This document shows, piece by piece, positions 10,162 to 47,689 of a stretch of 64,000 nt of DNA. Positions within the stretch are counted from its first letter, which is position 1. Each line of letters opens with the position of its first letter. The DNA is from Clostridia bacterium (GTDB taxonomy: Bacteria; Bacillota; Clostridia; Christensenellales; CAG-138), in assembly GCA_017416425.1 (NCBI GenBank), contig JAFQCL010000036.1, forward strand, positions 10,782 through 74,781, written 5' to 3'. The position numbers and the translations under genes are program-made. The notes beneath the pieces are model-generated. The model saw nothing but the letters and a program-made list of their open reading frames with translations, was not told the origin of the DNA and made no database searches.

Positions 10162-10172
10162 ATTCTTTATCC

Positions 10173-21892: not shown

Positions 21893-23880
21893 ACTATTCT
21901 CCCAAATAATTTTTCAATCTCACTCCGTTTTATCCGCACAAGCACAGGCCTTCCGTGGGGACATGTAAGCGGAGCTCCGTCGGCGGCAAAATAGTCAAGC
22001 AAGACCCGTATTTCCGCTTCATCAATATGCTGACCACCCTTAACCGCACTCTTGCATGCCATCTGTATAAGCTTCTCCTTGATAAGCTCTTTTTTGTATA
22101 GCTTATGGCGGCTCGATATAAGCGCGATGGCGCTATGCAAAAAATCAACCGTTTCGGCTCTATTAAATATGTAAGGTACCGCCCGTATACCTATGCTCAA
22201 GGCTCCCAGTTCTTCGATATCAAAACCAAGTTCTGAAAATAGCTCAAAGTTAGAAAACAATTGTGCATGTTCTTGTGCGCTTACTGTTACAGAGAGCGGC
22301 AAGAGAAGTATCTGAGAACGGCTGCTTATAGGCTTATTTATATACTCCTCATAGAGCTTGCGTTCATGTGCCGCATGATGATCTATATAAAACAGATCAG
22401 TCCCCTGCTCTACGATCCAATAGGTTTCAAAAACACAGCCAATTATATTAAAAGGCTCGTTTTTGATAAGTTTAACAGGAACCTTGGCCAGTATATCTAT
22501 ATTAGGCAAGCTCTCATCAATGGGTGCTTTTATTATAGGAAGCACATCTGCTTTGTTGGCATCTTTTTTATCATCGATGTCTTTTTGAACCGTTTTGATG
22601 TGATCCGCTTCCACCAAAGCTTTGCTGTCATGATCCGTATCATTATCTGAAGGAGCCTCTGCTATCCTTTCCTTTTGGGACAAGGCTTTTGAAGCGGCAG
22701 TATATCCGGCTAAATACTCATGCGTGCTATGTGAAGCGTCAGGTGTTTTCGCACTTGAAGCAATAGGAGGGTTATATTCCCGCTTAACGTCCGATAAAGC
22801 TGTGCTATCAGTGGGATATGTAGATCTTATTATCAATTCATACGAGCCTATGTTTTGCGGTGTATTACCTAGTCCATTATTGGGTTCAAACTGCATTCCT
22901 GTAAGCGTTTTATAAACAGCTTTACTTAAGCACAACAAAACACGCTCCTCATTTTTAAATCGAACATCCAGCTTATTTGGATGCACATTTACGTCAACCT
23001 CACTGCTGGATATCTTTATATGAGCTACGGCAAAAGGAAATCGCCCCTTCATAAGTCTTGTATCATAGGCCTGCTGGAGCGCGTATGAAAGACGCTGCGA
23101 TTTTATATAGCGCCTGTTCAGATAAAAGGACTGTCTGTTTCTTGTAGGATGCGCAAGAGTCTCTATTCCTACATAGCCTGTTATGTTTATATAGCCATCA
23201 TCATAATCGATAGCTTTCAAGCCCGACAGCACCTCGCTTCCATAAACCGTATATATAGCGTTTTTAAGGATCCCATCGCCCAAGCTTTGATATACAAGTT
23301 TATCAGCTGCTTTTAGCTTAATGGAAACATCAGGACGACACATAATAAGTCTTGCCACATAATCGCCTATATAACCGGCTTCTGCCTTTGTTGACTTTAG
23401 GAATTTAAGCCTTGCAGGAGTATTGTAAAAAAGGTCGCGCATTTCAATTGCCGTTCCATCCGGACAGCCACATGGCTCATGACGCAGGAGTTTGCCACCA
23501 TGTATCTCAACAAGCGTTCCAATATCAGAACCTCTCTCTCGTGTTCGCATTATAACTTTAGATACGGCAGCAATGGAAGCAAGAGCCTCACCACGAAAAC
23601 CAAGCGTTTCTATAGTCATAAGGTCCTGCGTGCTTACAATCTTACTGGTTGCGTGTCTTTCAAAAGCAAGTATGGACTCATCAAAGGGAATACCGCAGCC
23701 ATTGTCCGATATCCTTATAAGCTCGGTTCCTCCACCCGCTATCTCTATCGATATAGAGGTAGCTCCCGCATCCAATGAATTTTCTACAAGCTCCTTTACA
23801 ATGGATGCCGGCCTTTCAATTACTTCACCTGCAGCTATCTGGTTTGATACGAGTTCGCTAAGTATAGTTATCTTTGCCAT
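21889..23880 (-). CDS. mutL: DNA mismatch repair protein MutL
   Basis: GHKL ATPase motifs ELVENSLDAGAT, DNGCGI, GFRGEALASI. ATG 23880 (MAKITIL) lies 1 nt after the mutS stop. The longer track start at 23913 would overlap mutS. Confidence 0.9.
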   Translation of the reverse strand: MAKITILSELVSNQIAAGEVIERPASIVKELVENSLDAGATSISIEIAGGGTELIRISDNGCGIPFDESILAFERHATSKIVSTQDLMTIETLGFRGEALASIAAVSKVIMRTRERGSDIGTLVEIHGGKLLRHEPCGCPDGTAIEMRDLFYNTPARLKFLKSTKAEAGYIGDYVARLIMCRPDVSIKLKAADKLVYQSLGDGILKNAIYTVYGSEVLSGLKAIDYDDGYINITGYVGIETLAHPTRNRQSFYLNRRYIKSQRLSYALQQAYDTRLMKGRFPFAVAHIKISSSEVDVNVHPNKLDVRFKNEERVLLCLSKAVYKTLTGMQFEPNNGLGNTPQNIGSYELIIRSTYPTDSTALSDVKREYNPPIASSAKTPDASHSTHEYLAGYTAASKALSQKERIAEAPSDNDTDHDSKALVEADHIKTVQKDIDDKKDANKADVLPIIKAPIDESLPNIDILAKVPVKLIKNEPFNIIGCVFETYWIVEQGTDLFYIDHHAAHERKLYEEYINKPISSRSQILLLPLSVTVSAQEHAQLFSNFELFSELGFDIEELGALSIGIRAVPYIFNRAETVDFLHSAIALISSRHKLYKKELIKEKLIQMACKSAVKGGQHIDEAEIRVLLDYFAADGAPLTCPHGRPVLVRIKRSEIEKLFGRIV

Positions 23881-23881
23881 A

Positions 23882-26464
23882 TTACTGCTCCTTAGTGATT
23901 CCGCAAAGTTCATGTATGAGTATCATAGCCTCGATCGGTGTTATCCTGTTGGGATCTACCGATTCAAGGCGAGCCATAAGCTTTTCACCTATACGTTGAT
24001 CATCGCTTATAGCCGCTATCTCAAACTGCGCATCCATCGCATTTGAATTTATGTCGGATTGCTCAAGCCGCGTAAGTATTTCTTTAGCTCGCTTAAGCAC
24101 ACGCCCGGGAAGCCCTGCCAGCTTTGCAACTTGAATCCCAAAGCTCTTATCGGCGCTTCCTCGCACGATCTTTCTTAAAAAGATGATATTATCTTCCGAT
24201 TCCTTTACAGCGACTCTATAATTTTTTACACCTTGCAGCACGCCCTCAAGCTCTGTAAGCTCATGATAATGGGTAGCAAACAGGGTCTTACTCCGGGTTA
24301 TTGAGGAAGTGTATTCCAAAACAGACCAAGCAATGCTAAGACCGTCAAAGGTGCTTGTACCACGCCCTATTTCATCAAATACTATAAGGCTGCGTGAAGT
24401 TGCGTTATTTAGTATGTTTGCAACTTCGCTCATCTCCACCATAAATGTACTTTGACCCGTTGATAAGCTATCCGAAGCACCTATCCGAGTAAAAACTCTA
24501 TCAACTATGCATATATCCGCTCTGCTCGCAGGTACGAATGAGCCCATGTGTGCCATAAGCACTATAAGCGCGGTTTGACGCATATAGGTGCTTTTGCCCG
24601 CCATATTGGGTCCTGTAATTATAAGGAGGCGATTATCAGCTTCATCCATCTCGGTATCATTTGATACGAATCCATCGCATTGCCTTGAAGCCTCTACGAT
24701 AGGATGCCTACCGCCCTTTATAGAGATGATATTATTATCATTTATAGAGGGTCGCACATAGTTGTATTTTGCGGCAAGAGTAGCCAGCGAGCAATATATG
24801 TCTATTGCGGCTATTATACCAGACATGTCCTTGAGCCTTTCGACACAGGAGATGAGAGTATTTCTGATGCCAATAAATAGGTTATATTCCAAGGCCATAC
24901 ACTTTTCTTCCGCACCTAGTATTTTTTCCTCCAGTTCTTTTAGCGCGGGAAATGTATAGCGCTCAGCATTTGCAACCGTTTGCTTTCGCTCATAGTAATA
25001 AGGTATAACTCCCGAATAGGATTTACTTACCTCAGCATAGTATCCGAATATTCTGTTATATTTAAACTTAAGATTCTTTATGCCGCTGCTCTCACGTTCT
25101 TCGGCTTCAAGCTTTATGACCCAGTCACGACCATTTTCGGATATATATCTTAGCTCATCTACTTCGCTTGAATAGCCTTTGCGTATTATACCGCCCTCTT
25201 TCAGGGTGGTAGAAGGATCATCACATATGGCCTTACTCAAAAGCTCATATATATCCGAAAGTGTATCAAAGCGCTTTGCTATACTCACTATCGGTTTTGA
25301 GCGTAAAGAAGCTATAGCATCATATATGTCCGGGAACACAGCCAGGGAGCGAGCAATAGAAAGGCATTCCTTTGGATTTATAGTGCCATAGGCGATCTTA
25401 CTGCATAACCTCTCTATGTCGCATATTTTAGAAAGAGACCTTTTCAAATTATCACGCACTATCACATTGTCCATAAGCTCTTGGGTAGCGTCAAGACGCT
25501 TATTTATCGCCTTAGCATCAGTGAGCGGTTGCTCTATGCATGTTCTAAGCAAACGTCCTCCCATTGAGGTGTTTGTATAGTCCATATGACCAAAAAGCGT
25601 ATGTGCCTTGTTGCCGTCATATCTTAGCGGGCGAGTCAATTCAAGGTTTTGTCTTGTTGCTTTATCCATTATGACATACTGCTTGCGCTCATATGGAGTT
25701 AGCTTTAAAATATGTTTCAGCGCATTTTTTTGCGTATCCTCAAGGTAGTATAAAAGTGCGCCGGCTGCGTTTATGCCTGCATTGCCGGCATTATCAAAGC
25801 CGAAGCCGCTAAGGGTCGCAACACCAAAATGCTCCGTTAAGCATCTATAAGCCGTACTATATACAAAATGAGAGTCAGCAATTACCTGCACAAGTATGTT
25901 AGTATCATAGACGTATTGCTGTGCAGCTTTGTTAACTATGATCTCACGCGGATGTATCCTTGCAAGCTCATCCAGAAGCTGATCGGCGGCATAATTACCG
26001 ATCAGCTCAAATGCGTGAAAATCTCCAGTAGATATATCGCAATACGCAATACCAAATACTCCTCCTAAGAATGATACGGACGTAATAAAGCTATTAGCTT
26101 TATTATCAAGCATAGACTCTTCTATCACGGTTCCGGGAGTAAAAACACGCACAACATCGCGCTCAACAAGCCCTTTTCCGGCTTTTGGCTCTGTGAGCTG
26201 CTCGCACAGCGCAACTTTATACCCTTGTTTTATCAGCTTATTTATATAACCATCAACCGAATGATACGGCACACCGCACATAGGCGCCCTATGCTCAAGA
26301 CCACAGTCTCTTGCAGTCAATACGATGCCGAGTTTAGAAGAAGCAAGCTCTGCATCCTCAAAAAACATCTCGTAAAAGTCTCCAAGGCGCATCATTAATA
26401 TGCAGTCCTTGTATTTCTCTTTAAGATCGAGATATTGCTGCATAAGCGGCGTAAGCTTTGCCAT
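23882..26464 (-). CDS. mutS: DNA mismatch repair protein MutS
   Basis: 860 aa. Mismatch-binding motif RLGDFYEMF, Walker A GPNMAGKST, then STFMVEM, DEIGRGTST and ATHYHEL. Confidence 0.95.
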   Translation of the reverse strand: MAKLTPLMQQYLDLKEKYKDCILMMRLGDFYEMFFEDAELASSKLGIVLTARDCGLEHRAPMCGVPYHSVDGYINKLIKQGYKVALCEQLTEPKAGKGLVERDVVRVFTPGTVIEESMLDNKANSFITSVSFLGGVFGIAYCDISTGDFHAFELIGNYAADQLLDELARIHPREIIVNKAAQQYVYDTNILVQVIADSHFVYSTAYRCLTEHFGVATLSGFGFDNAGNAGINAAGALLYYLEDTQKNALKHILKLTPYERKQYVIMDKATRQNLELTRPLRYDGNKAHTLFGHMDYTNTSMGGRLLRTCIEQPLTDAKAINKRLDATQELMDNVIVRDNLKRSLSKICDIERLCSKIAYGTINPKECLSIARSLAVFPDIYDAIASLRSKPIVSIAKRFDTLSDIYELLSKAICDDPSTTLKEGGIIRKGYSSEVDELRYISENGRDWVIKLEAEERESSGIKNLKFKYNRIFGYYAEVSKSYSGVIPYYYERKQTVANAERYTFPALKELEEKILGAEEKCMALEYNLFIGIRNTLISCVERLKDMSGIIAAIDIYCSLATLAAKYNYVRPSINDNNIISIKGGRHPIVEASRQCDGFVSNDTEMDEADNRLLIITGPNMAGKSTYMRQTALIVLMAHMGSFVPASRADICIVDRVFTRIGASDSLSTGQSTFMVEMSEVANILNNATSRSLIVFDEIGRGTSTFDGLSIAWSVLEYTSSITRSKTLFATHYHELTELEGVLQGVKNYRVAVKESEDNIIFLRKIVRGSADKSFGIQVAKLAGLPGRVLKRAKEILTRLEQSDINSNAMDAQFEIAAISDDQRIGEKLMARLESVDPNRITPIEAMILIHELCGITKEQ

Positions 26465-35099: not shown

Positions 35100-36011
35100 T
35101 TAACCTCTGCGCTGAGATATGCCTATGATATTAGACAATACCCAATCATGCTCCTCAACTGTGACAACGGTGTCACAATATGGGCACTTTGCGCTACTGT
35201 TGATATTAAGCGGTGCTCCACAGTTTGGACAGTTATGCACTGTCACATCTCCCTCATCTCTCGTGGTATAGCCTGTGGGACGTGTCAGTATCCACTCATA
35301 CTCCATGAAGCACTCGGCAGTCTTATTGCCTCGTATCACTTGTCCTGTTTTATCGTCTATCACATAATCAATTATTCGTGTATTTAAGTAGACGACCAGG
35401 CAATCATCGTCCTCCTGAGTATACCAGCCACGTATCGTACAGGTAAGAACTGTAGGACGCTCGATATAGTTTGTTTGACCGTTTCTAATATATGCTTGAA
35501 CTTGGCGTTCCATTTGAGCATAATACGCATCGCTCATATAAGGCCTTATTGGCGTAATGTCCTTATCCTGCCATGCATTCTGCATTTGTATATAAAGGTT
35601 ACGGAATTTTTCGCTAACATCTCCTATGTTGAAATTAGGATCCTTTTGGACATAGGTCTCAATGGGCTGAAGCTTTTCAGCAGACGTCCTTTGACCACCG
35701 GCCCTTACGGGCTGGCTACTCGCCCCCTTCTTCTTCCTTGAAAATACTAGCACTACTATTATAATAAAAATAATCAAGCCATATACAAAACCGCCACCGC
35801 CATCAGAATCGATTGTTCCGCCACCGTAATAGGAATAGTCACTACCCCAATCGTCACTATCCCAATCGCTACCGCCCCAATCGCTTCCACTTCCGCCTCC
35901 CCAGTCGCTGTCACCGGAAAAATCCCCAAAATCAGCTACAGACTCAACAGGAATAAAAAATGCACACAATAATAGCAAACAGCAGATCATTAGTGCGAAA
36001 TAACGTTTCAT
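35100..36011 (-). CDS. Tim44-like domain membrane protein with C-terminal zinc ribbon
   Basis: AGGAGG lies 9 nt before ATG 36011. Signal/TM segment, then a D/W/G/S low-complexity segment and a second TM. The Tim44-like core is QNAWQDKDITPIRPYMSDAYY. CPNCGAPL...CPYCDT lies at the C-terminus. Confidence 0.6.
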   Translation of the reverse strand: MKRYFALMICCLLLLCAFFIPVESVADFGDFSGDSDWGGGSGSDWGGSDWDSDDWGSDYSYYGGGTIDSDGGGGFVYGLIIFIIIVVLVFSRKKKGASSQPVRAGGQRTSAEKLQPIETYVQKDPNFNIGDVSEKFRNLYIQMQNAWQDKDITPIRPYMSDAYYAQMERQVQAYIRNGQTNYIERPTVLTCTIRGWYTQEDDDCLVVYLNTRIIDYVIDDKTGQVIRGNKTAECFMEYEWILTRPTGYTTRDEGDVTVHNCPNCGAPLNINSSAKCPYCDTVVTVEEHDWVLSNIIGISQRRG

Positions 36012-36138
36012 TTTAAAAGGCCTCCTATAGCTATATATATGCATTTTATCATATGTTTATAATAACTGCAATAGCTACAAATCGACATAAGTTTTAGCAA
36101 AGTTACACTTGAAATGGAAAAGGACAACACGTATGTTG

Positions 36139-36189: not shown

Positions 36190-37038
36190 TTACTTTGTAT
36201 AGGTAAAAAAGCCCCTTCCAGTCTTTCTACCAAGAAGCTTTCCGCGCACCATCTTTCGAAGAAGCGTATGAGCGCGATACTTAGGATCACCGGTTTCCGA
36301 ATATAGCGTGTCCATAATAGCAAGTACAACATCAAGTCCGACCAGATCTCCCAAAGCAAGCGGCCCCATAGGATGATTGCAACCGAGCTTCATGGCGGTA
36401 TCAATATCTTCAGGAGAAGCTATGCCCTCTGATACAATACCTATCGCTTCATTTATCATGGGTATGAGTATCCTGTTTACAACAAAACCAGGGTTTTCCT
36501 GCACTGAAACGGGCTCTTTTTCAATTTCGCGAGAAAGCTCCATAATATAGCTGTAAGTTTCATCTGAGGTATGCACTCCGCGTATCACCTCAACAAGCTT
36601 CATAGCAGTTGGAGGATTAAAGAAATGCATTCCGATAAATTTATCCTGGCGCTTTGTAGATGTAGCTATGTCGGTAATCGATATCGAAGATGTATTTGTG
36701 CAGAATATGGTCTTTTCATCGCAAATAGCATCAAGTTCACCAAAAACCGACTTCTTTACCGAAGAATTTTCAACGATAGCTTCGATGACAACATCCGCAT
36801 GAGCAGCAAGACTAAGATCTGTGGTAAAACTGATATTACCTAAAACTATATTCATGTATTCTGCGCTGATCTTGCCACGCTCAAGACGCTTAATAAGGCT
36901 CTTTGAAAGACGTGCTGAAGCTGCCTCAATTATGGAGTCATTTATATCACGAACGATAACTTTCATCTCATGCGAAGCAAATACATGGGCAATATCAAGA
37001 CCCATCGTGCCTGCACCTATAACAAATATGTGTTTCAT
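36190..37038 (-). CDS. hbd: 3-hydroxybutyryl-CoA dehydrogenase
   Basis: Rossmann motif IGAGTMG. The HFFNPP motif and 282-aa length are typical of Hbd. Confidence 0.85.
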   Translation of the reverse strand: MKHIFVIGAGTMGLDIAHVFASHEMKVIVRDINDSIIEAASARLSKSLIKRLERGKISAEYMNIVLGNISFTTDLSLAAHADVVIEAIVENSSVKKSVFGELDAICDEKTIFCTNTSSISITDIATSTKRQDKFIGMHFFNPPTAMKLVEVIRGVHTSDETYSYIMELSREIEKEPVSVQENPGFVVNRILIPMINEAIGIVSEGIASPEDIDTAMKLGCNHPMGPLALGDLVGLDVVLAIMDTLYSETGDPKYRAHTLLRKMVRGKLLGRKTGRGFFTYTK

Positions 37039-37044
37039 CTATAA

Positions 37045-37818
37045 TTACACTCCCTTAAATTCATCTCTTTTTTCCTTGGTAACAAAGGCTTTCATTGCCA
37101 TCTTCTGATCGTGCGTTGCAAAGCAGCGGCTAAACATATCGGCTTCATAATCAAGATCGCCAATGAGCGCAGCATCGGTAAAACGACGTATAGCCTGTTT
37201 TGCTCCGTAAACCGCAACAGGAGCATTTTGTGCAATAGATTCAGCAAGGTCAAGTGCCCTTTGCATCAGCTCATCCTGCGGATATACCTTGCTTACAAGT
37301 CCTATGTCCAAGGCTTCCGCTGCATTCATCGATTTTCCCGTAAGTATAAGCTCTAAGGCATTCGATATACCAATAACCCTCGGTAATCTCTGCGTGCCGC
37401 CAAACCCGGGCGTTATGCCAAGCGTGACCTCGGGCTGTGCAAACTTCGCTTTTTCGCCTGCGAGTCTGATATCGCAAGCAAGCGCAAGCTCACAGCCACC
37501 ACCAAGAGCGTAACCATTTATAGCTGCAATAAAAGGCTTTTTCATACTTTCTATCATTGAGAATACCGTATGCCCCAAATGGCAAAAGGCTTTTGCTTCT
37601 TCCACGTTAAGCTGCGCCATCTCACCAATGTCTGCTCCGGCAACAAAGCTTTTGCCAGCACCGGTGATTATTGCAACTCGTATATCATTGTCTGTCTTTA
37701 CATTGCAAAGCACCTCCGAGAGGTTATTTAGCATCTCGCGATTGAGTGCGTTCAAAGCTTCCGGCCTATCCATGGTAATTATTGCGACATGCTCTCTTTT
37801 TTCAAGTTGTACGCTCAT
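37045..37818 (-). CDS. crt: short-chain enoyl-CoA hydratase (crotonase)
   Basis: 257 aa. GAGKSFVAGADI and ALGGGCELALACD are crotonase-fold oxyanion motifs. Confidence 0.85.
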   Translation of the reverse strand: MSVQLEKREHVAIITMDRPEALNALNREMLNNLSEVLCNVKTDNDIRVAIITGAGKSFVAGADIGEMAQLNVEEAKAFCHLGHTVFSMIESMKKPFIAAINGYALGGGCELALACDIRLAGEKAKFAQPEVTLGITPGFGGTQRLPRVIGISNALELILTGKSMNAAEALDIGLVSKVYPQDELMQRALDLAESIAQNAPVAVYGAKQAIRRFTDAALIGDLDYEADMFSRCFATHDQKMAMKAFVTKEKRDEFKGV

Positions 37819-37846: not shown

Positions 37847-38647
37847 TTAGAAGCTTTTCCTATTCATACCTCTGTTCACAAGCTCATTTACGGCAAAGGT
37901 TGCAACGTCCTCGGCATATTTTTGAGGACCAAAGCCCGCATCAAAACCAAGCTCCTTCGCGAGCTCATGGGTGATCCTTGCCCCACCGCATACCACAACG
38001 AAGCGTGAACGAAGCCCTTCCGCCTCTAGCAGCTCTATAAGCTCAGTGAGATTTTGTATATGGACATCCTTTTGCGTTACTGTCTGTGAAACAAGGAGTA
38101 TATCGGCATTAAGCTCTGTAGCTTTTTTAATGAACTCCTCATTTGGAACCTGAGCTCCAAGATTATAGGCTTCGATCATTTCATAGCGCTCAAGCCCATA
38201 ATGACCGGCGAAACCTTTACGGTTCATTATAGCATCAATACCCACAGTATGAGCATCAGTTCCGGTAGACGCACCGACTACCACAAGCTTACGACCGAAG
38301 TGTTCGCGTATAAAATCATCGACCTCATGCATATCCATTACGGATCCTTCAATAGTCTGTACGGTTATATTTTCATAATTGATAGTATGGACACATGAGC
38401 CGTATACCACATAGAATGTAAATTCCTTATCAAGAGGCTGAGCTAAAGCAACATTTGGGTCGGTAAGCCCCATTGCTCGCGCCAATATCCGTGCGGCTTC
38501 TATTCCTTTTTCGTCATTTTTGACAGGAAGAGTAAATGAAACCTGGACCTTGCCATCATTCATCGTATCGCCATATGCCTTGAGCTTTGTGAGGTCAAGG
38601 GTCTTGTCAAAATCCTGTTTATGGGTATTATAAAGTCCTGAACTCAT
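37847..38647 (-). CDS. kamE: lysine 5,6-aminomutase beta subunit (B12-binding)
   Basis: DxHxxG cobalamin-binding motif (GTDAHTVGIDA) in a Rossmann-like C-terminal domain. There is a 1-nt TAATG overlap with kamD. Confidence 0.85.
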   Translation of the reverse strand: MSSGLYNTHKQDFDKTLDLTKLKAYGDTMNDGKVQVSFTLPVKNDEKGIEAARILARAMGLTDPNVALAQPLDKEFTFYVVYGSCVHTINYENITVQTIEGSVMDMHEVDDFIREHFGRKLVVVGASTGTDAHTVGIDAIMNRKGFAGHYGLERYEMIEAYNLGAQVPNEEFIKKATELNADILLVSQTVTQKDVHIQNLTELIELLEAEGLRSRFVVVCGGARITHELAKELGFDAGFGPQKYAEDVATFAVNELVNRGMNRKSF

Positions 38648-40203
38648 TAGTTTATACCTCCGCTCATAAGCTCAACAAATGGATTAAAGTAGTTTTCTTC
38701 CTTTGAAACTACGCCATCAAGACCTTTTCCAGCGTCACGCATACGTTTGATATCCGCAAATATGCCCTTTTCAAGGGTAGCAAATAATCCCATTTGTTCA
38801 ATTTCCTCAAGAAGCACCATGGCCTTTGTAAGCACCTGGTCAGCACGCTTCTCCATAATACCACCATCCTTAAATGTTATCTCATTGCCAAGATCAGCCA
38901 TGGTGCGGAAAATGTATTGCGCATTTTCAATGGCAAGCGCCCTATCCGACATAAACGGAGTATGAATGGCTTCTGTCAGCATACCGAGGAGATGTATTTT
39001 TTGCCCCGTAAGTATAGTGACCATATTAAACAGAGCATCCTGAACGTGACCGCGGAATATATTGCCCGTCATAAATTTGGTGGGTGGCATATATTTGAGC
39101 GGTGCATTAGGGAATATCTCTCTTGCCATCTGAGCTTGTGCTAACTCATAGAGGAAGCCATTTTCCAAATCTGGGGTTATTTCAAAAGCGTGTCCCAATC
39201 CCTGCTGTTTTTCAGGCAAACCTGCGCAAAGCGCAAATTGCTCATTTAAAAACTGAGATGCCAAAACGGTATGCGCTTCTTCGACAGCATCAGCTGTGGT
39301 CAAATAGTTATCCTCACCCGTATTTATTATAACGCCGGCATAGGAATTGATGACCCTTGAAAAATACTGGTCAACAAGAGTTCTTTGCATGTTTATATCA
39401 CGGAAGAGAATGCCATAAAGCGCATCATTAAGCATAACATCAAGACGCTCCAGCGCACCCATAGCAGCTATTTCGGGCATACAAAGACCTGAACAATAAT
39501 TACAAAGCCTTATATAGCGTTTTTCCTCTATTCCAACCTCGTCCAAAGCCGCTCGCATAAGACGGAAATTTTCCTGAGTTGCATAGGTTCCACCGAAGCC
39601 CTCGGTAGTTGCGCCATAGGGTACATAATCAAGCAGGCTTTGACCCGTGGTACGAATAACAGCTATAACATCCGCGCCTTGCTTTGCTGCCGCTTTAGCC
39701 TGGGTTATATCCTCATATATGTTTCCGGTAGCCACTATTACATAAAGATAAGGACCTTCCTTGTCACCGTATTCACGAAGAAATTCATTGCGCTTTGCAA
39801 CATTTCCCTTTATCCGTTCTGTAAAAGCTTTGGCCACGGGCATTATAGCCTTGCGTATATCATTGATATGATTTGATTCGATCGTCGCAAGATCGATCGC
39901 GCCATTATTGATTGCCTCCGCCACACCCTGTGGCGAAAGCCCGGTGGATATCATTGCGTTACCGATGCAGTATGCAGCGCCAAGACTCAGAATATCTCGC
40001 TCCATCATATGGTCTACTACCACATTTGGAAGCGGAACTTCTGACTCATTTACTCCGTCAATGCCAAGGAGTCTGCAAACAGCACGTTCAACTGTAACGG
40101 TTGTATGTAGATCGATGAAGGCTTGCGTGTCAAGCGCAATGCGTCTGGCAGATGCCCTTGCGCGCTCAACCTTTGAAAAATCAAGATGCAGTTTGCTTTC
40201 CAT
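38647..40203 (-). CDS. kamD: lysine 5,6-aminomutase alpha subunit
   Basis: 518 aa large subunit directly upstream of the B12-binding subunit and downstream of kamA. Its length and context match KamD. Confidence 0.8.
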   Translation of the reverse strand: MESKLHLDFSKVERARASARRIALDTQAFIDLHTTVTVERAVCRLLGIDGVNESEVPLPNVVVDHMMERDILSLGAAYCIGNAMISTGLSPQGVAEAINNGAIDLATIESNHINDIRKAIMPVAKAFTERIKGNVAKRNEFLREYGDKEGPYLYVIVATGNIYEDITQAKAAAKQGADVIAVIRTTGQSLLDYVPYGATTEGFGGTYATQENFRLMRAALDEVGIEEKRYIRLCNYCSGLCMPEIAAMGALERLDVMLNDALYGILFRDINMQRTLVDQYFSRVINSYAGVIINTGEDNYLTTADAVEEAHTVLASQFLNEQFALCAGLPEKQQGLGHAFEITPDLENGFLYELAQAQMAREIFPNAPLKYMPPTKFMTGNIFRGHVQDALFNMVTILTGQKIHLLGMLTEAIHTPFMSDRALAIENAQYIFRTMADLGNEITFKDGGIMEKRADQVLTKAMVLLEEIEQMGLFATLEKGIFADIKRMRDAGKGLDGVVSKEENYFNPFVELMSGGIN

Positions 40204-40219
40204 ACACTCACCCTATTCC

Positions 40220-41473
40220 TTAATTATGACGACCGCGCTCAGTACGTTTTAAGCCCTTAGGCTCCATTGAAAGCATCTGTCCCTGCTCAAGCGCAGATAC
40301 ACCTATCGTGTTTGCTTCCCTCTCACCACGGCATACTTCGCAGTTACATGTCTCTTCATAGTGAGTAGGCTCGGTATATGTAGTTATAACGCCTTCAAAA
40401 TTGCGCAGTATCACCCGTTTTGGGGTTTGGCTTATTACATATTGAGGCATGACAGGGGTCTTTCCTCCGCCGCCAGGTGCATCAACAACAAATGTGGGCA
40501 CCGCATAGCCGGATGTATGACCTCTTAAGCCCTCTATTATTTCGATACCCTTTGAAACCGGGGTACGGAAATGTTCAAGACCCATAGAAAGATCGCATTG
40601 ATAGATATAGTATGGGCGAACACGCATTTTAACAAGTTCGTGTACGAGTTTTTTCATAACATGTACGCAGTCGTTTACTCCCGCAAGAAGCACGCTCTGA
40701 TTCCCAAGGGGTATACCGGCGTCTGCAAGCATCGCACAAGCCTTTGCTGCTTCATCGGTTATTTCATCTGGGTGATTAAAATGCGTATTAAGCCATATTG
40801 GATGATACTTTTTAAGCATGTTGCAAAGCTCCGGTGTGATCCTTTGCGGCATCACAACGGGGGTACGAGAACCGATACGGATTATTTCAACATGCGGTAT
40901 CGCGCGAAGACTGCTTATTATGTATTCAAGAGTTGCGTCGTTTTGCATGAGCGCATCACCGCCCGAAAGTAAAACATCGCGAACTTCGGGATGTTTTCTT
41001 ACGTATTCAATGCAGCCATCGATCTGCTTTCTTGGCACCGCACCATCATTTTGTCCTGCAAAGCGTCTTCTTGTGCAGTGGCGGCAATACATGGAGCACT
41101 GGTCGGTTATAAGTAAAAGCACCCTATCCGGATACCTGTGAGTAAGTCCGGGTACGGGAGAGTCTGTATCCTCATGAAGCGGATCGAGAAGATCGGCCTC
41201 AGCACGATGAAGCTCCGCAGCAGTCGGGATAGCCTGCTTACGCACCGGATCATGCAGATCGCTGGGATCGATAAGCGATAGATAATATGGAGTAATAGCC
41301 ATACGGAGCGTTCCCAGACATTTTTTGACACCATCTTCCTCTTCGGGAGTAAGCTTTATGTATTTTTTTAGGTCTTCAAGGGTCTCTATACGGTGAGTAA
41401 CCTGCCAGCGCCAGTCATTCCACTGCTCATTCGGTACATCCGCAAAAAGACCGTACATTCTACTCGATTTCAT
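40220..41473 (-). CDS. kamA: L-lysine 2,3-aminomutase (radical SAM, PLP)
   Basis: CxxxCxxC cluster CSMYCRHCTRR. It also has LLSGGDAL and the C-terminal Zn-site CNCEVC. AAAGGAGG precedes ATG 41473; the longer track start lacks an SD. Confidence 0.9.
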   Translation of the reverse strand: MKSSRMYGLFADVPNEQWNDWRWQVTHRIETLEDLKKYIKLTPEEEDGVKKCLGTLRMAITPYYLSLIDPSDLHDPVRKQAIPTAAELHRAEADLLDPLHEDTDSPVPGLTHRYPDRVLLLITDQCSMYCRHCTRRRFAGQNDGAVPRKQIDGCIEYVRKHPEVRDVLLSGGDALMQNDATLEYIISSLRAIPHVEIIRIGSRTPVVMPQRITPELCNMLKKYHPIWLNTHFNHPDEITDEAAKACAMLADAGIPLGNQSVLLAGVNDCVHVMKKLVHELVKMRVRPYYIYQCDLSMGLEHFRTPVSKGIEIIEGLRGHTSGYAVPTFVVDAPGGGGKTPVMPQYVISQTPKRVILRNFEGVITTYTEPTHYEETCNCEVCRGEREANTIGVSALEQGQMLSMEPKGLKRTERGRHN

Positions 41474-41538
41474 GTGATCCTCCTTTAAACAGAACAGGGA
41501 TGGTGCTATTTTTGCAGCCATCCCCAGAATTTTATTGA

Positions 41539-42579
41539 TTAAACATATTTCTCGTCAAAAAGCTTACGAAGCTTTTCATTTTCACGAAGTACGTTAAGGG
41601 TTATATCTGCATGCTCCTTAGTGTAGCCGTTTCCAACGATCATCGTTACATCCTTACCGATACCCTCTGCACCAAGCGCAGCCTTTGTAAAGCTGGTAGC
41701 CATGGAGAAGAAGTATACGATACCATCATCACGAACGGGAAGGATCGCGCTCATCTCGCAGGACTCGACATTTACACAGCTTATAGAGATATCATATTCC
41801 TTGCCATCATTAGCGGCAAGAGCAGCTTCAAGAACAGCAATAGGCTCTGTTGCGCTTGCAACTACGACTTTATTATATACACCAAGTTCCATGAGAGCGT
41901 CTACCTGCTTGGGATTTCTGACAACGCCTACTACATTTCCCTTGGGACCAACCTTCTTCATGGCTTCATAGCCGCAAAGAACGCCGCTCTTTCCGTTTGC
42001 ACCAAGAATAAGCACACTGTCACCTTCCTTGGGGAGCTTTCTTGCCTGAGCAGGTGCGCCTGCAACATCAAGAGCCGCGAGTGCAAGAGGTTCGCTCATA
42101 TCATCCGGGAGCTTTGCATAAATGCCGCTCTCAAAGAGCACAGCCTGACCGATGATGTCAACACGGTCGATATCCTTATGGATAGCAAGGATCTTCTCTA
42201 TCTTAAGAGGAGTAAGTGAAAGTGATACAAGGGAAGCGATCTTATCGCCAACCTTAAGATCACGATGCGCAAGATCTTCACCGATATAAGCAACTGTGCC
42301 AATAAACATGCCGCCGGAACCAGTTACGGGATTCTGCTGCTTGCCGCGCTCAGCTACAATACCCATTATCATTTCGCCTATCTTCTGCTCATCACCGCCG
42401 CAGGCTTCCTCTATCTGGGTGAATGAAGCTGAATCAATGTTGAGCGACTGTACATCACAGATGATCTCATTGGAATAACGCTTGGTCATATCGTTATCGA
42501 TCCTATAAGCAGCCTGAGTCAAAACGCCCTGGGGCTCAAGAACCCTATGTGTACCATACTTGTTTCCCTTAATTGCCAT
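41539..42579 (-). CDS. kdd: 3,5-diaminohexanoate dehydrogenase
   Basis: About 346 aa from ATG 42579 (GGAGG 8 nt upstream). N-terminus: GNKYGTHRVLEPQGVL. It has a Rossmann-like GANGKSG segment and sits in the kam cluster. Confidence 0.75.
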   Translation of the reverse strand: MAIKGNKYGTHRVLEPQGVLTQAAYRIDNDMTKRYSNEIICDVQSLNIDSASFTQIEEACGGDEQKIGEMIMGIVAERGKQQNPVTGSGGMFIGTVAYIGEDLAHRDLKVGDKIASLVSLSLTPLKIEKILAIHKDIDRVDIIGQAVLFESGIYAKLPDDMSEPLALAALDVAGAPAQARKLPKEGDSVLILGANGKSGVLCGYEAMKKVGPKGNVVGVVRNPKQVDALMELGVYNKVVVASATEPIAVLEAALAANDGKEYDISISCVNVESCEMSAILPVRDDGIVYFFSMATSFTKAALGAEGIGKDVTMIVGNGYTKEHADITLNVLRENEKLRKLFDEKYV

Positions 42580-42636
42580 AAAATTTACCTCCAATAAATT
42601 ATTCTTTTTCTTTCGCTTAAATGAGCTGTATCAAAC

Positions 42637-43464
42637 TTAGTTTCTCGGTTTTAAACCCAGTATTTTCCTTGCCTCATCGGGAGTTGCCACAGGTCTGCCA
42701 AACTCTTTCGCGAGCCTTACTACCTTTTCAACGAGCTCAGCATTGCTCTTTGCCGGTACGCCCTTTTCAAGATATACATTATCTTCAAAGCCAACGCGCA
42801 CATGACCGCCCATGATTATTGCCATAACAGTCATTGGGAACTCAAACCTCCCAACGCCGGCAACGGTCCAAGTCGAGCCTTCCGGTATGCTTTCCGCCAT
42901 AAATATAAGGTCTCTGGGTTCACCTGAAATACCGCCATTTACGCCCATAACAAAGTCAAAGTGCATCGGGGTCTTTATGTGACCCTTCTTCGCAAGGCGC
43001 TTTGCCATATCGATCATGCCCTTATCAAACACTTCTACCTCGGGCTTTATATCAAGAGCGTTCATCTTCGTAACAAAATCAATTATCATGTTCTCGGTGT
43101 TAACAAAGATATCGTCTCCGCCAAAATTACAAGTACCGCAGTCAAGCGTTGCCATTTCCGGACGAAGAGTTATAGGCTGAAGCCTTTCATCATTGGTCAT
43201 ACCAACAGCGCCGCCGGTGGAGGGCTGTATTATGACATCAGGGCAAAGCTCATATATAGCTTTCATACATTCCTCAAAGCGGTCTCGTGACTGAGTGGGA
43301 GTGCCATCGTCCTCACGAACGTGCAGATGAATTATTGAGGCGCCTGCTTTATAAGCGCCATAAGCCTGCTCGGCTATTTCCTGAACCGTATAAGGAACTG
43401 CGGGATTATGCTCCTTTGTTACCTCTGCACCACATATACATGCTGTAATAATAAGCTTTTCCAT
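42637..43464 (-). CDS. kce: 3-keto-5-aminohexanoate cleavage enzyme (BKACE family)
   Basis: 275 aa. LIITACICGAEVTKEHNPAVP and IIHLHVRED fit the TIM-barrel BKACE pattern. Confidence 0.8.
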   Translation of the reverse strand: MEKLIITACICGAEVTKEHNPAVPYTVQEIAEQAYGAYKAGASIIHLHVREDDGTPTQSRDRFEECMKAIYELCPDVIIQPSTGGAVGMTNDERLQPITLRPEMATLDCGTCNFGGDDIFVNTENMIIDFVTKMNALDIKPEVEVFDKGMIDMAKRLAKKGHIKTPMHFDFVMGVNGGISGEPRDLIFMAESIPEGSTWTVAGVGRFEFPMTVMAIIMGGHVRVGFEDNVYLEKGVPAKSNAELVEKVVRLAKEFGRPVATPDEARKILGLKPRN

Positions 43465-43476
43465 AATGTCCTCCTT

Positions 43477-43866
43477 TTATTTTGCGCTTTTACGCTGCTT
43501 ATCAAGCGGAACCACACAAGTTCCGCTTGCTCTTGCTACTACTATAGGTTCAGGAAGAACATCACATGCCGAATCATTTATATCCGGGCGAGGCGCTATT
43601 ACCTTTCTTGCCTCAAATACCATTTTACGAGATGTACGACCACAGCTTACTATTTCACCTATCGCTTCAATGTAATCTCCGGCATAAACAGGCGCGATAA
43701 ACTCGATCATGTCATATGCCTTAAAAAGTCCTTCATCACCATCGTTCATAATAAGCAATTCGGTAGCGACATCACCAAAGAGTTGAAGCATACGAGCCCC
43801 ATCTACAAGGTTCCCGCCATAATGCGCATCGTGCGCACTCATACGCAGCCTGATCACAGATTTCAT
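43477..43866 (-). CDS. kal: 3-aminobutyryl-CoA ammonia-lyase (hot-dog fold)
   Basis: 129 aa, first gene after the riboswitch, with SD AAGGAGG. The size and position match Kal of lysine-fermentation clusters. Confidence 0.7.
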
Positions 43867-43954
43867 TGTTTAGCCTCCTTGTGGTAGAAAATTTAAAAAA
43901 GCGCCAAAAATCAGCTTTTTAACCGATTGATAGCGCATCATCCCGTGTATAATA

Positions 43955-44004
43955 AACAAAAAACTATTGAAGCGCATTAAAATACATAATATGCGTTTCA
44001 ATAG
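43955..44004 (-). terminator. riboswitch-controlled intrinsic terminator
   Basis: The minus strand reads CUAUUGAAACGCAU - 13-nt loop - AUGCGCUUCAAUAG (13 bp, one A.C mismatch) followed by UUUUUUGUU. Confidence 0.75.
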
Positions 44005-44166
44005 CTCTCCGCCCTCTCAGGACGACAGTCACAACGCGCTAAGCGTTGCGCCCAAATATGGAGTGTGGGTAACACCAATCATATTTTCGGCGATAGCACA
44101 TTCACGCAAAGCACATTACCCCATGTATAACTCAACGCTACCTTACACATCGCTCCTCTATACAAC
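43995..44166 (-). promoter_or_regulatory. lysine riboswitch (L-box) aptamer
   Basis: The minus strand reads GUUGUAUAGAGGAGCGAUG...GGGG...GCUAUCGCCGAAA...UUGGGCGCAACGC...GUGACUGUCGUCCUGAGAGGGCGGAGAGCUAUUGAAAC. This reproduces the conserved L-box blocks (AGAGG-GCG, CGCCGAA, ACUGUC, GGAGAG) in the right order and spacing. Compared from memory with the B. subtilis lysC and T. maritima aptamers. Confidence 0.8.
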
Positions 44167-44177
44167 ATCTTGTTATT

Positions 44178-44207
44178 ATAATACCAAAAGCAAGTAGTTT
44201 TTGTCAA
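44178..44207 (-). promoter_or_regulatory. sigma-A-type promoter of the riboswitch/lysine operon
   Basis: TTGACA (44207..44202, overlapping the TGA stop of the upstream gene), then an 18-nt spacer ending in TGG, then TATTAT (44183..44178). Confidence 0.55.
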
Positions 44208-45655
44208 TAATGTTTTTTTATATAATTCATAAGCAATGGGTTAGTTCCTAAAAGCTCACATATTGAAAGTGCATCGTGAGGTACGATAGACGAATCCTCC
44301 ACAAGATAGACCCCGTAGCTCATAGCCTCTTCAATTATGCTTATGCGGCTCTTATTTGAATTATCAATGCGTTTTTTTAGCCCGTACATATCAGTATCAC
44401 AAAGTCCTTTCACCCTATATTGCCTATCGGCAAACGGAGCCACTCCATCATAATGTGTCGCAAAAAGGCTTATGCAGCGCATATCGCATACATATTCTAC
44501 AGCACCCTTTACGATAGCAGCGCCCTCATCCGGATTGGTACCCCTTGCCAGCTCATCTACAAGCATAAGCGAAAACCCGGATGCTTCAATACCGGAAATA
44601 GCATCGTTTAACTGGGTTATCTCGCTGCCAAAGCTGGATAGCCCCTTGTTATAGTCCCCGGTCGCTCCGGACACCATATAGATATTATCAAAAAGCGGCA
44701 TCTCGCAGCTATTTGCAAATGGAAAAATACCTGCCTGAATACATAGTGCATTAAGTGCAATCGTGTACAGCACAATGCTTTTTCCTCCCATATTCGCCCC
44801 TGTAAGTACGCTTGCACCCATTTCAAGCTCAATGGAAAGAGGTGTAAAGTTACCGCCACTGCGCGACTTTATTGCATATGCAACAGCCGGGTTAAACATA
44901 TTGGTTAACACCAATCTTTTATCAGTGATATGGGGCATAGGACATCCGTATTTTACGGCAAGCGCAGCCTTAGCCATGGAAAAATCAAGTTTTGCTATTG
45001 ATCCTACGGTCGATAGCATCTCCTGAGCGTATGGTCTAAGTTCCATACATAGATTTCGTTTTAAGGCCGTCTCCTCAGCGTCCTCCATGGCTACAAATTC
45101 AGCACGCTTTAGTAGGAGCGACTCTCGCCTCTTTGCATCAGTACATGAATTGATTTGAAGCTCAATCAGGCGCTTCTGCTCACGCGCATAGCTAAGCTTT
45201 TCCGAAAGCGCACCCGAAAGCATGAATGCAGGATTGCGCTTTTTCTCCGGATCTAAAATATCAAGCGCTGCGGAAATGCGGTTGATAGTTATACCACTAA
45301 GCTCAAGCTTAGCATTTAAAGTATCAAAAAGGGGCGCGATCGTGTCAAGCTGCAATAAAAAACGCTTTATTTCAAAAAGTTCTATTTCATTAAGGGTAAG
45401 AGAATCTATGGAAACTATAGATCTCCTTATATCTTTAAGGCTCATGAGCATGTGGGAAATCTTTTTATATTCAGGAAGCTCCTGCGCTTTGCAAAGCTTA
45501 TTTATATTTTCCAACTCCTCAAGGAGCAGCCCTCTTTCCTCTGGTTTAAAAAAGCGCAGCTTACGTTTTAGCTCAGCGCCATATGGCGAGCAGGTCTCTA
45601 TCTCGTTTTTTACAAATGTAAATCCGATCTCATCCATGTATTTTTCATCTATCAT
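44204..45655 (-). CDS. truncated MutS paralogue (ATPase domain V only; no mismatch-binding or Smr domain)
   Basis: Walker A GANMGGKS, Walker B LMLVDELARGTNPDEG, then FATHY. About 483 aa from ATG 45655 (AAGAGG upstream). It has no GDFYE-type N-terminal domain. Confidence 0.8.
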   Translation of the reverse strand: MIDEKYMDEIGFTFVKNEIETCSPYGAELKRKLRFFKPEERGLLLEELENINKLCKAQELPEYKKISHMLMSLKDIRRSIVSIDSLTLNEIELFEIKRFLLQLDTIAPLFDTLNAKLELSGITINRISAALDILDPEKKRNPAFMLSGALSEKLSYAREQKRLIELQINSCTDAKRRESLLLKRAEFVAMEDAEETALKRNLCMELRPYAQEMLSTVGSIAKLDFSMAKAALAVKYGCPMPHITDKRLVLTNMFNPAVAYAIKSRSGGNFTPLSIELEMGASVLTGANMGGKSIVLYTIALNALCIQAGIFPFANSCEMPLFDNIYMVSGATGDYNKGLSSFGSEITQLNDAISGIEASGFSLMLVDELARGTNPDEGAAIVKGAVEYVCDMRCISLFATHYDGVAPFADRQYRVKGLCDTDMYGLKKRIDNSNKSRISIIEEAMSYGVYLVEDSSIVPHDALSICELLGTNPLLMNYIKKHY

Positions 45656-45687
45656 GATATTACCTCTTAATTTTATTGGATCAAATG

Positions 45688-46674
45688 TCACGAGCCCGCT
45701 AAAACGTCAAACACGGGCACATGAACAGCATTACTCATTCGTGATAGAAGTTCTGAAGCAGAAAGACTCATTCCATATGCATTAAAAGGATTTACCGCAA
45801 CACCGATAAGGTTGATTGTCCTAAGTACGGTAAGCTGCATTCCTTTTTTCTTAATCTTATCCGCCGTACCGCTGCTTATAAGAAACTTGCTGGCATCCTC
45901 CGCGCACAGTTCCATGCCGTTAAGCTTTATTCCGCTCATAAGAAGCGGCTTCAGCATTGCATCAGTCACGGCTCCTTTTAAAAATACAGCAGCTACGTTA
46001 GAATTCTTTCTTAATACATCGCATAAAGCTGTTTCTCTTTGGATAATGATGCAGTCATCTTTTGTGTAAAGCGCCATATGCTTATCAAAGCCATGTTTAA
46101 ATCGTTCCGATCTATTAAGCAGTAAAAGCTCACATATATGTGCCGTATCGGTAATGAGCGTATTTATATCAGGTGAATAGGACGCCCCGGCGCATAATAT
46201 CGTAGCCTCAGATACTAACGGGGCAGATAAGGAACGCCTGCTGATAGCTCCGTCTATGAAGACTTTATTCGCGCCTTCTTTTTTCAAGATTTCATTGAGC
46301 AAGATTAGCTGTCCCGTCATAGAAGGGCCCCCGATACGAACATAGCCATCGCTTACCGCACGTATCACAGCTACCTCACCCATGGGCGTAAGCATGCCTG
46401 TAGTAGCTAATATTTCCTTGGTGATATCGCAAAATTTGACCAGATTCGCAGCCGTTGCAATAATAGTATTAGCACGAACATATATCTCCGGCTTTTTTGT
46501 TGAGGTAACTATATCGATAGTCTCTCCGTCCATTCCAATAGAGGTTACCCCAAGTGTTGTATTCGTATCAAAAAGCGACAGCATTTTATTTAAAACGGTA
46601 GTCTTACCGGCATTTTTACACATCCCGATTATGGATATCGCATCATAAGGTTCTATATGAGCTCTCGTCAGCAC
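45688..46674 (-). CDS. uncharacterised P-loop NTPase
   Basis: N-terminal P-loop IIGMCKNAGKTTVLNKM; the rest is unrecognised. GTG 46674 is preceded by GGAGG at 6 nt. The track start at 46692 is TTG without an SD. Confidence 0.6.
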   Translation of the reverse strand: MLTRAHIEPYDAISIIGMCKNAGKTTVLNKMLSLFDTNTTLGVTSIGMDGETIDIVTSTKKPEIYVRANTIIATAANLVKFCDITKEILATTGMLTPMGEVAVIRAVSDGYVRIGGPSMTGQLILLNEILKKEGANKVFIDGAISRRSLSAPLVSEATILCAGASYSPDINTLITDTAHICELLLLNRSERFKHGFDKHMALYTKDDCIIIQRETALCDVLRKNSNVAAVFLKGAVTDAMLKPLLMSGIKLNGMELCAEDASKFLISSGTADKIKKKGMQLTVLRTINLIGVAVNPFNAYGMSLSASELLSRMSNAVHVPVFDVLAGS

Positions 46675-46756
46675 CCTGTACCTCCAATACAATAAAAAAT
46701 ATCACCTTCATATTGTGTGGACAGTCTGAATAACTTTTAATGAAAGGAGATGCCTC

Positions 46757-47689
46757 ATGTATCCATCACGCAGATTCAGACCGCAAAAAAACTATAAACG
46801 CATATTGTTTTTTACAATAACTTTATGCCTTTTTCTTTTACTTCCGACAATTGCTTCAGGAGGTAAAGCAAGTAAACCCGTATTGCTTGAGCTGCACAAC
46901 AAGGTGTCGGAAAGATTAAACTTTGTCATCGACATTGAGGAGGATGTGCCTCAAGACATACGAGATATGCTTGTCAGCCAAACAACCGATAAGTCGAGTC
47001 CTGCAAAAACAGGCAAGTTGGATTTGTCGGGCGATCAGCCGACTGTGCTCATATATCACACTCACGCTACCGAGGCCTATACGCCAACGGATCAATACAG
47101 CTATGTGTCAACCTCTGAATGGCGCACAGATAATGCCACAAGAAGTATCATAGCGGTTGGGGAGGAGCTTGCGCGCATACTCCGGGATGATTACGGTATA
47201 TCCGTAATACACGATACTACCGACTATGAACCGCCTAAGCTGTCTACAGCATATGAACGCTCTGAAACAGGTATGCTCTACTATAGGGAGCAATATCCCA
47301 GCATACAGCTATTTATAGATATCCATCGCGATGCGTACGAAACCGAAAGCGGGACTTCAGATTATGTACTAATAGACGGTGTACGCACCGCGCGAATGAT
47401 GTTTGTAGTCGGCACTGGCGAAAACTATGATGATAAGCCCAACTTTGATGCTACATTCTCACTGGCGGAAGACCTATCCAACAGACTTTCAGCTATAGAT
47501 GAACGCCTTGTGCGCAGTATCCGTGTAAAAACAGGACGCTATAATCAGCATATATCCGATGGATGCGTTCTGGTTGAGGTTGGGCACAATCGAAATACGC
47601 TGGAGGAAGCGCTCAATGCGGTGAGGCTTTTGGCACAGGTAATAGCCGAATCCGCAAACGTGCCAAGGACAGTATCCTTTATTCCTTAA
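46757..47689 (+). CDS. spoIIP: stage II sporulation protein P
   Basis: N-terminal TM segment. VLIYHTHATEAYTP and LFIDIHRDA are SpoIIP amidase-family motifs. SD AAAGGAG. Confidence 0.85.
   Translation: MYPSRRFRPQKNYKRILFFTITLCLFLLLPTIASGGKASKPVLLELHNKVSERLNFVIDIEEDVPQDIRDMLVSQTTDKSSPAKTGKLDLSGDQPTVLIYHTHATEAYTPTDQYSYVSTSEWRTDNATRSIIAVGEELARILRDDYGISVIHDTTDYEPPKLSTAYERSETGMLYYREQYPSIQLFIDIHRDAYETESGTSDYVLIDGVRTARMMFVVGTGENYDDKPNFDATFSLAEDLSNRLSAIDERLVRSIRVKTGRYNQHISDGCVLVEVGHNRNTLEEALNAVRLLAQVIAESANVPRTVSFIP

Follow-up and report, generated by a model that had tools for sequence, protein, structure and literature searches.

The kamB-kamC gene pair

A 64,000-nt stretch of the genome of a Clostridia bacterium (contig JAFQCL010000036.1, positions 10,782 to 74,781; the window in what follows) carries two adjacent genes, kamB and kamC, that probably encode the two subunits of an ATP-dependent reactivating (E2-type) factor of KamDE, the lysine 5,6-aminomutase that depends on adenosylcobalamin and pyridoxal 5'-phosphate (PLP). 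The pair is separated by a 32-nt gap and lies 337 nt upstream of the lysine fermentation genes kal...kamD-kamE.

45688..46674, minus strand: kamB, P-loop protein of 328 aa (35.2 kDa), start codon GTG at 46674
44204..45655, minus strand: kamC, MutS2-core-like ATPase of the ATP-binding cassette (ABC) type, 483 aa (53.8 kDa), start codon ATG at 45655

Both proteins match curated NCBIfam equivalog models from end to end. The 328-aa protein scored 305.7 bits against NF052386 (lysine 5,6-aminomutase reactivase subunit KamB; model positions 1-326 of 326, curated cut-off 210 bits), and the 483-aa protein 439 bits against NF052383 (lysine 5,6-aminomutase reactivase ATPase KamC; 1-508 of 508, cut-off 300 bits). 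KamB/KamC pairs taken from other gene arrangements, unlinked loci included, likewise pass these cut-offs. Judged by these profile matches, the pair are members of the curated KamB and KamC families, from which they show no family-level difference in full-length match, pairing or operon context. The reactivase role is not new, as the family, the name and the proposed function are already present in a curated public resource, and a UniRef/RefSeq entry of Eubacterium ramulus already bears the name KamC. An earlier note on this DNA, made from the sequence alone, had arrived at an ATP-driven reactivase or cofactor-exchange system for KamDE; the curated family names and the synteny described below support that proposal, on the basis of annotation and genomic context. 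Elsewhere in public records the names given to KamC homologues vary ("DNA mismatch repair protein MutS", "MutS2", "MutS-related protein", "KamC"), and nearly all KamB homologues are listed as "hypothetical protein".

The machine-made list of open reading frames (ORFs) gives longer versions of both genes (45688..46692, 334 aa with a TTG start, and 44204..45691, 495 aa with a GTG start). The shorter starts were preferred because GGAGG lies 6 nt upstream of the kamB GTG and AAGAGG upstream of the kamC ATG, and because the resulting N-termini agree with the family alignments of both proteins. This evidence bears out the two co-oriented genes of 328 and 483 codons, 32 nt apart, that had been described earlier. 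Together the two proteins amount to 89 kDa and contain 18 cysteines, three of which are invariant or nearly so in KamB.

Linkage to the lysine 5,6-aminomutase operon

One genome per species was scanned by pattern, and 349 genomes proved to encode a KamB relative. In the 80 top-ranking loci neighbouring genes were called by tblastn with the window proteins, and 64 of these loci had enough flanking sequence to be informative. In 79 of the 80 loci the next gene after KamB is KamC; the pairing is nearly obligate. The exception (L004, KamB at 9974-10960) has no detectable KamC, and the approximately 1.7 kb downstream of its kamB holds no convincing plus-strand gene. In 46 of the 64 informative loci the genes kal-kce-kdd-kamA-kamD-kamE lie directly downstream of the pair and in one they lie upstream, so that the pair adjoins the operon in 47/64. 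The adjacency to kamDE across genomes, which the earlier note had put forward as a check on its proposal, is thus found in most informative loci. No OraE-like gene was detected beside any KamBC locus (tblastn with KamD, 1e-10).

Four more distant representatives were added from a 50%-identity library, in which the KamB family has about 2259 representatives. All four are within lysine fermentation clusters, in three gene orders: kamA-KamB-KamC-kamD-kamE with 4-nt overlaps (L081, L087), kamD-kamE-MaoC-KamB-KamC (L082, L083), and KamB-KamC-kal...kamE as in the window (L084). The linkage of KamBC to kamDE survives shuffling of gene order. The pair of the window is upstream of the operon and outside its riboswitch-controlled unit, whereas in L081 and L087 kamA precedes it and kamD follows. 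We infer that the names kamB and kamC simply denote the two ORFs flanked by kamA and kamD in the order of L081 and L087, and this alphabetical arrangement is probably why the mutase subunits are named D and E. Among the best 150 of the 2259 library representatives there were no KamB-KamC fusions, the lengths ranging from 208 to 373 aa.

In the other 17 informative loci no kam gene was found within 4-8.5 kb of the pair. They make up a small number of clades, nested among the linked loci. In the largest of them, which was placed at 10-12 kb from the operon, kamB lies about 11.8 kb from kal on one contig, in divergent orientation. Over 4330 nt L028 overlaps L089 and L091, two contigs with the kam operon, at 100% identity, and the KamD protein P0496 bears the name of the metagenome-assembled genome that L028 comes from; L040 and L038 are syntenic with the L028 arrangement.

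In six Eubacterium/Lachnospiraceae loci the gene directly upstream of kamB encodes a corrinoid adenosyltransferase of the CobA/CobO/BtuR type (PF02572, E-value 7e-55), a neighbour that fits a predicted role of KamBC in the handling of the B12 cofactor. In a further locus (L070) a CobA-type adenosyltransferase gene (19923-20438) sits after kamE. The six upstream genes are the following:

L046, 9438-9962: corrinoid adenosyltransferase
L049, 8398-8922: corrinoid adenosyltransferase
L064, 9375-9962: corrinoid adenosyltransferase
L072, 9354-9962: corrinoid adenosyltransferase
L073, 1990-2598: corrinoid adenosyltransferase
L047, 13-327: corrinoid adenosyltransferase

KamC, a MutS-type ATPase without mismatch-recognition domains

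The ATPase motifs reported earlier for the 483-aa protein were all found, with GANMGGKS at residue 286, DELARGTNPDEG at residue 367 and FATHY at residue 398. They supply the Walker A lysine (K292), the Walker B residues D367-E368 and H401, and a signature-like SSFGSE is located at residue 340. Across 25 KamC homologues the Walker A motif, the signature-like SSFGxE, the Walker B motif with its catalytic glutamate and the His loop are invariant, which suggests that KamC is probably an active ATPase. The invariance of GANMGGKS, DELARGT and ATHY places the family with the MutS-superfamily ATPase domain V. Conserved as well are N-terminal motifs specific to the KamC family (SPYG, ELFExKRF and LDP).

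Pfam recognises only MutS_V in KamC (E-value 1.3e-25), in agreement with the earlier description of a protein lacking both the MutS N-terminus and Smr; neither the mismatch-binding domain I nor the connector domain II of MutS was matched, nor was the Smr domain of MutS2. Scores against the full-length families were low. KamC reached 111.4 bits against TIGR01070 (MutS; cut-off 641.7) and 111-122 bits against the mismatch-repair MutS equivalogs TIGR01070 and NF003810 (cut-offs 480-642). Against TIGR01069 (MutS2) it reached 141.5 bits (cut-off 400) and covered positions 237-462 of 790. Both equivalog families thus score far under their cut-offs, in line with the view that the protein is not a DNA-repair factor. 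The window also carries a canonical MutS with domains I-V at 23882..26464 and, adjoining it, MutL at 21889..23913, as had been pointed out.

In the AlphaFold2 model of KamC (mean predicted local distance difference test score, pLDDT, 90.3), residues 1-236 form a helical N-terminal half whose long helices resemble a lever, residues 242-416 form the ATPase, and a helix-turn-helix lies at the C-terminus. Foldseek aligned the model over its whole length with MutS2 and MutS (template modelling score, TM, 0.70-0.76) and gave almost full coverage of 7vuf and 9kce, MutS2 core constructs that lack Smr. With the MutS2 core (7vuf of T. thermophilus, 9kce of T. maritima and 7qv3 of B. subtilis) KamC shares the helical core and lever, domain V and the C-terminal helix-turn-helix. 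Unlike MutS2, it has neither the Smr nuclease nor a KOW domain, is paired with KamB and is linked to kamDE.

KamB, a P-loop protein without close structural relatives

The P-loop GMCKNAGKTT begins at residue 17 of the 328-aa protein, where it provides a Walker A motif (K24), and FIDGA forms a Walker-B-like motif (D141). The earlier statement that the P-loop is the only recognisable feature of this protein agrees with the profile and predicted-structure comparisons, which gave no significant neighbour. No Pfam family matched above threshold, the best hit in a profile search of the PDB was to MobB at E-value 0.23, and a Foldseek search of the PDB with the AlphaFold2 model (pLDDT 87.9) returned nothing at E<1e-3, the best matches having an E-value of 0.013 and TM of about 0.3 (ParA, MinD, Get3). 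Sub-threshold Pfam matches of KamB family members were to MobB in 17 of 25 (best E-value 0.0045) and to CobW/HypB/UreG in 6 of 25 (best E-value 0.0059, to cobW). In the model, KamB looks like a SIMIBI-type P-loop core to which a beta-rich insertion and, at the C-terminus, a further alpha/beta domain have been added.

Three assignments were considered and dropped. An hhalign comparison of KamB with CobA-type adenosyltransferases gave nothing, as did one with KamE, where KamB might have been a mimic of the B12 domain by analogy with DdrB. A part in anti-phage defence was set aside because neither KamB nor KamC matched any PADLOC defence-system model at E<=0.01.

The downstream operon and its lysine riboswitch

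The genes downstream of the pair encode a lysine fermentation pathway whose members, with the exception of kamE, were assigned by equivalog models (bits, with cut-offs) and are given here in order of transcription, followed by the regulatory elements upstream of kal:

43477..43866, minus strand: kal, 3-aminobutyryl-CoA ammonia lyase (NCBIfam NF052388, 195.3 bits, cut-off 160)
42637..43464, minus strand: kce (NCBIfam NF052387, 462.4 bits, cut-off 382; Pfam BKACE)
41539..42594, minus strand: kdd, L-erythro-3,5-diaminohexanoate dehydrogenase (NCBIfam NF052381, 261.2 bits, cut-off 200); the real start is probably a few codons within this ORF
40220..41521, minus strand: kamA, lysine 2,3-aminomutase, a radical S-adenosylmethionine (SAM) enzyme (TIGR03820, 629 bits, cut-off 525; Pfam LAM_C and Radical_SAM)
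38647..40203, minus strand: kamD, lysine 5,6-aminomutase alpha subunit, 57.3 kDa (NCBIfam NF052384, 919 bits, cut-off 600; Pfam Lys-AminoMut_A, E-value 6e-269)
37847..38647, minus strand: kamE, lysine 5,6-aminomutase beta subunit with B12-binding domain, 29.5 kDa (Pfam OAM_dimer and B12-binding)
44178..44207, minus strand: sigma-70-like promoter candidate, TTGACA, 18-nt spacer, (TG)TATTAT, 11 of 12 positions
43994..44168, minus strand: lysine riboswitch aptamer RF00168, 51 bits, E-value 1.2e-11, full model 1-182
43958..44004, minus strand: intrinsic terminator of the riboswitch, with 5' arm 44004..43991, loop 43990..43978, 3' arm 43977..43964 and T-run 43963..43958

KamD is presumed to be the client of KamBC. 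The operon runs on past kamE with a crotonase gene (37045..37818, minus strand) and a 3-hydroxyacyl-CoA dehydrogenase gene (36190..37038, minus strand), after which comes a gene for a Tim44-like domain protein (35100..36044, minus strand).

The promoter candidate is the best-scoring site in 43800..46900. Its -35 hexamer (TTGACA, 44207..44202) includes the TGA stop codon of kamC (44206..44204), an overlap that had been noticed before. The region has 8 promoter-like sites compared with 8.9 expected from shuffled sequences, and the match to the consensus alone is therefore weak evidence; the candidate is credible because it is positioned 10 nt ahead of the riboswitch, and it is from this position that we infer its function. 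The aptamer scores well above the RF00168 gathering score of 30 bits. A gathering scan of the whole window with Rfam missed it and a local scan recovered it.

The terminator hairpin is present in the minimum-free-energy fold, and its 5' arm contains the 3' strand of aptamer helix P1 (CTATTG, 44004..43999). At least 22 related loci show this same overlap between arm and P1, the arm there reading GCGCUAUUGA.... As the terminator arm uses the P1 strand, aptamer and terminator are mutually exclusive, and lysine binding should block termination. The element would accordingly act as a lysine-ON (antitermination) switch, unlike the OFF switches that usually control biosynthetic genes, and this fits a catabolic operon. 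Early comparative studies had predicted catabolic riboswitches of this lysine-activated kind.

Of the 46 adjacent loci, 43 have a riboswitch-like element in the kamC-kal interval, and in this lineage kamBC consistently precedes the lysine-controlled unit without being part of it. Being upstream of both promoter and riboswitch, kamBC should therefore be expressed independently of the lysine-induced catabolic genes. No separate kamBC promoter was identifiable in the 82-nt spacer that separates kamB from the divergent sporulation gene spoIIP (46757..47689, plus strand), a gene that marks the host as a spore-forming member of the Clostridia. Eubacterium-type loci have a second lysine-riboswitch-like element in the kal-kce interval (L044, 15273-15436; L046, 15379-15543; L047, 5891-6055; L073, 8099-8263).

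Other genes recur near the pair or the operon. In about ten loci a gene for an NhaC-like Na+/H+ antiporter (PF03553), which may be a transporter of lysine or of a product, lies on the opposite strand, inserted in the gap that separates kamC from the riboswitch (L005, L007, L027, L043, L044, L046, L047, L049, L072 and L073; for example, L073 5361-6941, minus strand). A flavodiiron-type gene (ODP/metallo-beta-lactamase and flavodoxin domains) recurs beside kamE or kamC in different genomes, and its product could serve in oxygen protection or cobalamin reduction:

L031, 18867-20081: flavodiiron gene after kamE
L074, 9487-10650: flavodiiron gene after kamE
L077, 11498-12664: flavodiiron gene after kamE
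L017, 8530-9822: flavodiiron gene after kamC
L020, 9875-11353: flavodiiron gene after kamC
L040, 14293-15876: flavodiiron gene after kamC
L010, 10421-11408: flavodiiron gene 7.5 kb downstream of kamC

Six Christensenellales-like contigs (L088-L091, L094 and L095) have no kamBC in the immediate neighbourhood of the kam operon. Ahead of the operon (about 1.6-5.8 kb in each) they carry a conserved set of genes for GLUCM-like_C, D-Glu cyclase, LamB/YcsF, CT_C_D and CT_A_B (5-oxoprolinase-like) proteins, to which L094 adds a CobQ-like cobyric acid synthase gene.

A probable reactivating factor for lysine 5,6-aminomutase

Native D-lysine mutase consists of E1 (KamDE, alpha2beta2) and an auxiliary protein, E2, a sulfhydryl protein of about 80 kDa that is ATP-dependent and requires thiols (PMC3958899; PMC9081730). 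E2 was credited with reactivation, possibly by swapping bound cobalamin for free adenosylcobalamin, and neither review names genes for it (PMC3958899; PMC9081730). Recombinant KamDE is active but undergoes rapid suicide inactivation (PMC3958899; PMC9081730). In a 2011 paper on the lysine cluster of Fusobacterium, the two genes were labelled only "HP" and "mutS" (PMC3149608). The combined mass and cysteine content of KamB and KamC are roughly compatible with a thiol-requiring E2 of that size, which does not amount to proof.

A mechanism can be proposed along the following lines. Electron transfer would inactivate KamDE and leave cob(III)alamin tightly bound, and a complex of KamB and KamC would then dock on the dead holoenzyme. 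The MutS-like dimer, perhaps under the control of nucleotide switching in KamB, would bind and hydrolyse ATP and thereby drive a movement that pulls the B12-binding domain of KamE off the KamD barrel and so opens the interface. The damaged cobalamin would be let go, and the apoenzyme could take up new adenosylcobalamin made by a corrinoid adenosyltransferase.

The task proposed here, ATP-dependent release of damaged cobalamin by a factor encoded beside its client, is that of the diol and glycerol dehydratase reactivases DdrAB and GdrAB and of the ethanolamine ammonia-lyase reactivase EutA (PMC9081730). Those factors are ATPases of the Hsp70/actin fold (ASKHA), whereas KamC is a MutS-type ABC ATPase and KamB a P-loop protein, and neither matched a family of the Hsp70/actin fold in Pfam or NCBIfam. 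The G3E GTPase chaperones of methylmalonyl-CoA mutase (MeaB/MMAA type) are, like KamB, small P-loop NTPases tied to a B12 mutase; KamB differs from them in having no significant sequence or fold match and in adding the beta-rich insertion and the C-terminal alpha/beta domain. With rather less than even confidence, we put forward a broader suggestion, that the E2 of Stadtman's lysine mutase, which was never cloned, is made up of KamB and KamC, and that the two represent a third, structurally unrelated class of B12 reactivase. In this class a MutS2-like lever/ABC-ATPase dimer, with a P-loop partner of a fold unseen in the PDB, would remodel a protein and not a nucleic acid. On this view its only name so far comes from comparative genomics, and the class is still to be purified, assayed or solved.

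Several points count against a reactivating factor. The 80 kDa of E2 fits a 1:1 KamB-KamC heterodimer only roughly, and MutS-type ATPases are normally dimers. A synthetase activity was reported for E2, yet neither protein resembles a known adenosyltransferase. The position of kamBC outside the riboswitch unit means that there is no simple co-regulation with kamDE. In about 12 of the 64 informative loci the pair is surrounded by housekeeping genes, and kam genes are absent from the sequence covered, at least 6.6 kb downstream of kamC and 0.4-10 kb upstream of kamB (four of them have less than 4 kb of sequence upstream of kamB), and BLAST searches of these loci against kam-bearing contigs revealed no overlap. 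No origin was found for the basis of the NCBIfam reactivase name, and the open-access literature yielded no assay, structure or interaction evidence for KamB or KamC, key subscription papers being outside the search.

Among the alternatives, KamBC might be a chaperone for cofactor delivery or gating, analogous to MeaB/MMAA together with an adenosyltransferase, or part of an adenosylcobalamin-synthesising activity, which would load fresh cofactor and strip none. The report that E2 has adenosylcobalamin synthetase activity, with label transferred from ATP to E1 (PMC3958899), speaks for it, as do the weak matches of KamB to MobB and CobW/HypB/UreG, members of the SIMIBI class to which MeaB also belongs, and the CobA-type gene adjoining kamB in six loci. 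We nevertheless regard it as unlikely, given that every match of KamB to G3E/MobB families is below threshold, that its TM to the MeaB-like structure 3nxs is only 0.20 (Foldseek) and that the curated name is that of a reactivase; the separate CobA gene and the empty hhalign comparison argue against KamB being itself an adenosyltransferase. Less probable again is that KamBC senses ATP and regulates KamDE allosterically, thereby accounting for the ATP effect known from classical work on D-lysine mutase, and has no part in repair. ATP was indeed described as an allosteric effector that requires E2, recombinant KamDE alone showing no ATP effect (PMC3958899; PMC9081730), but OraS of ornithine aminomutase restores ATP regulation to KamDE (PMC3958899; PMC9081730), so the effect need not reside in E2, and the fully conserved catalytic Glu and His of KamC suggest hydrolysis-driven work over sensing.

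It is very improbable that KamC is a MutS paralogue directed at nucleic acids, serving to control recombination or, like MutS2, to sense collided ribosomes, with KamB as an accessory NTPase and an incidental linkage to the lysine operon. Its nearest folds are those of MutS2 and MutS, many public records name its homologues accordingly, and roughly one-fifth to one-quarter of the informative loci put the pair among housekeeping genes (recG, rho, tkt). Against this, KamC lacks domains I and II as well as Smr and KOW, it falls far below the TIGR01069 and TIGR01070 cut-offs, and a full canonical MutS and MutL are encoded in the same window. The linkage to kamDE is moreover kept through at least four gene orders, including the translationally coupled insertion between kamA and kamD, and one of the "housekeeping" clades sits about 12 kb from a kam operon.

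Significance

Many public entries for KamC homologues still read "DNA mismatch repair protein MutS/MutS2", and those for KamB "hypothetical protein". If KamB and KamC do form the reactivating factor of lysine 5,6-aminomutase, the ATP-dependent E2 activating protein of the 1970s would gain a gene identity that is testable with recombinant proteins. Fast suicide inactivation of the recombinant enzyme limits its use as a biocatalyst, and co-expression of KamBC would be an obvious measure to try. The reach of the MutS ATPase scaffold would then extend beyond the surveillance of DNA and ribosomes, to service as a protein-remodelling motor for a radical B12 enzyme.

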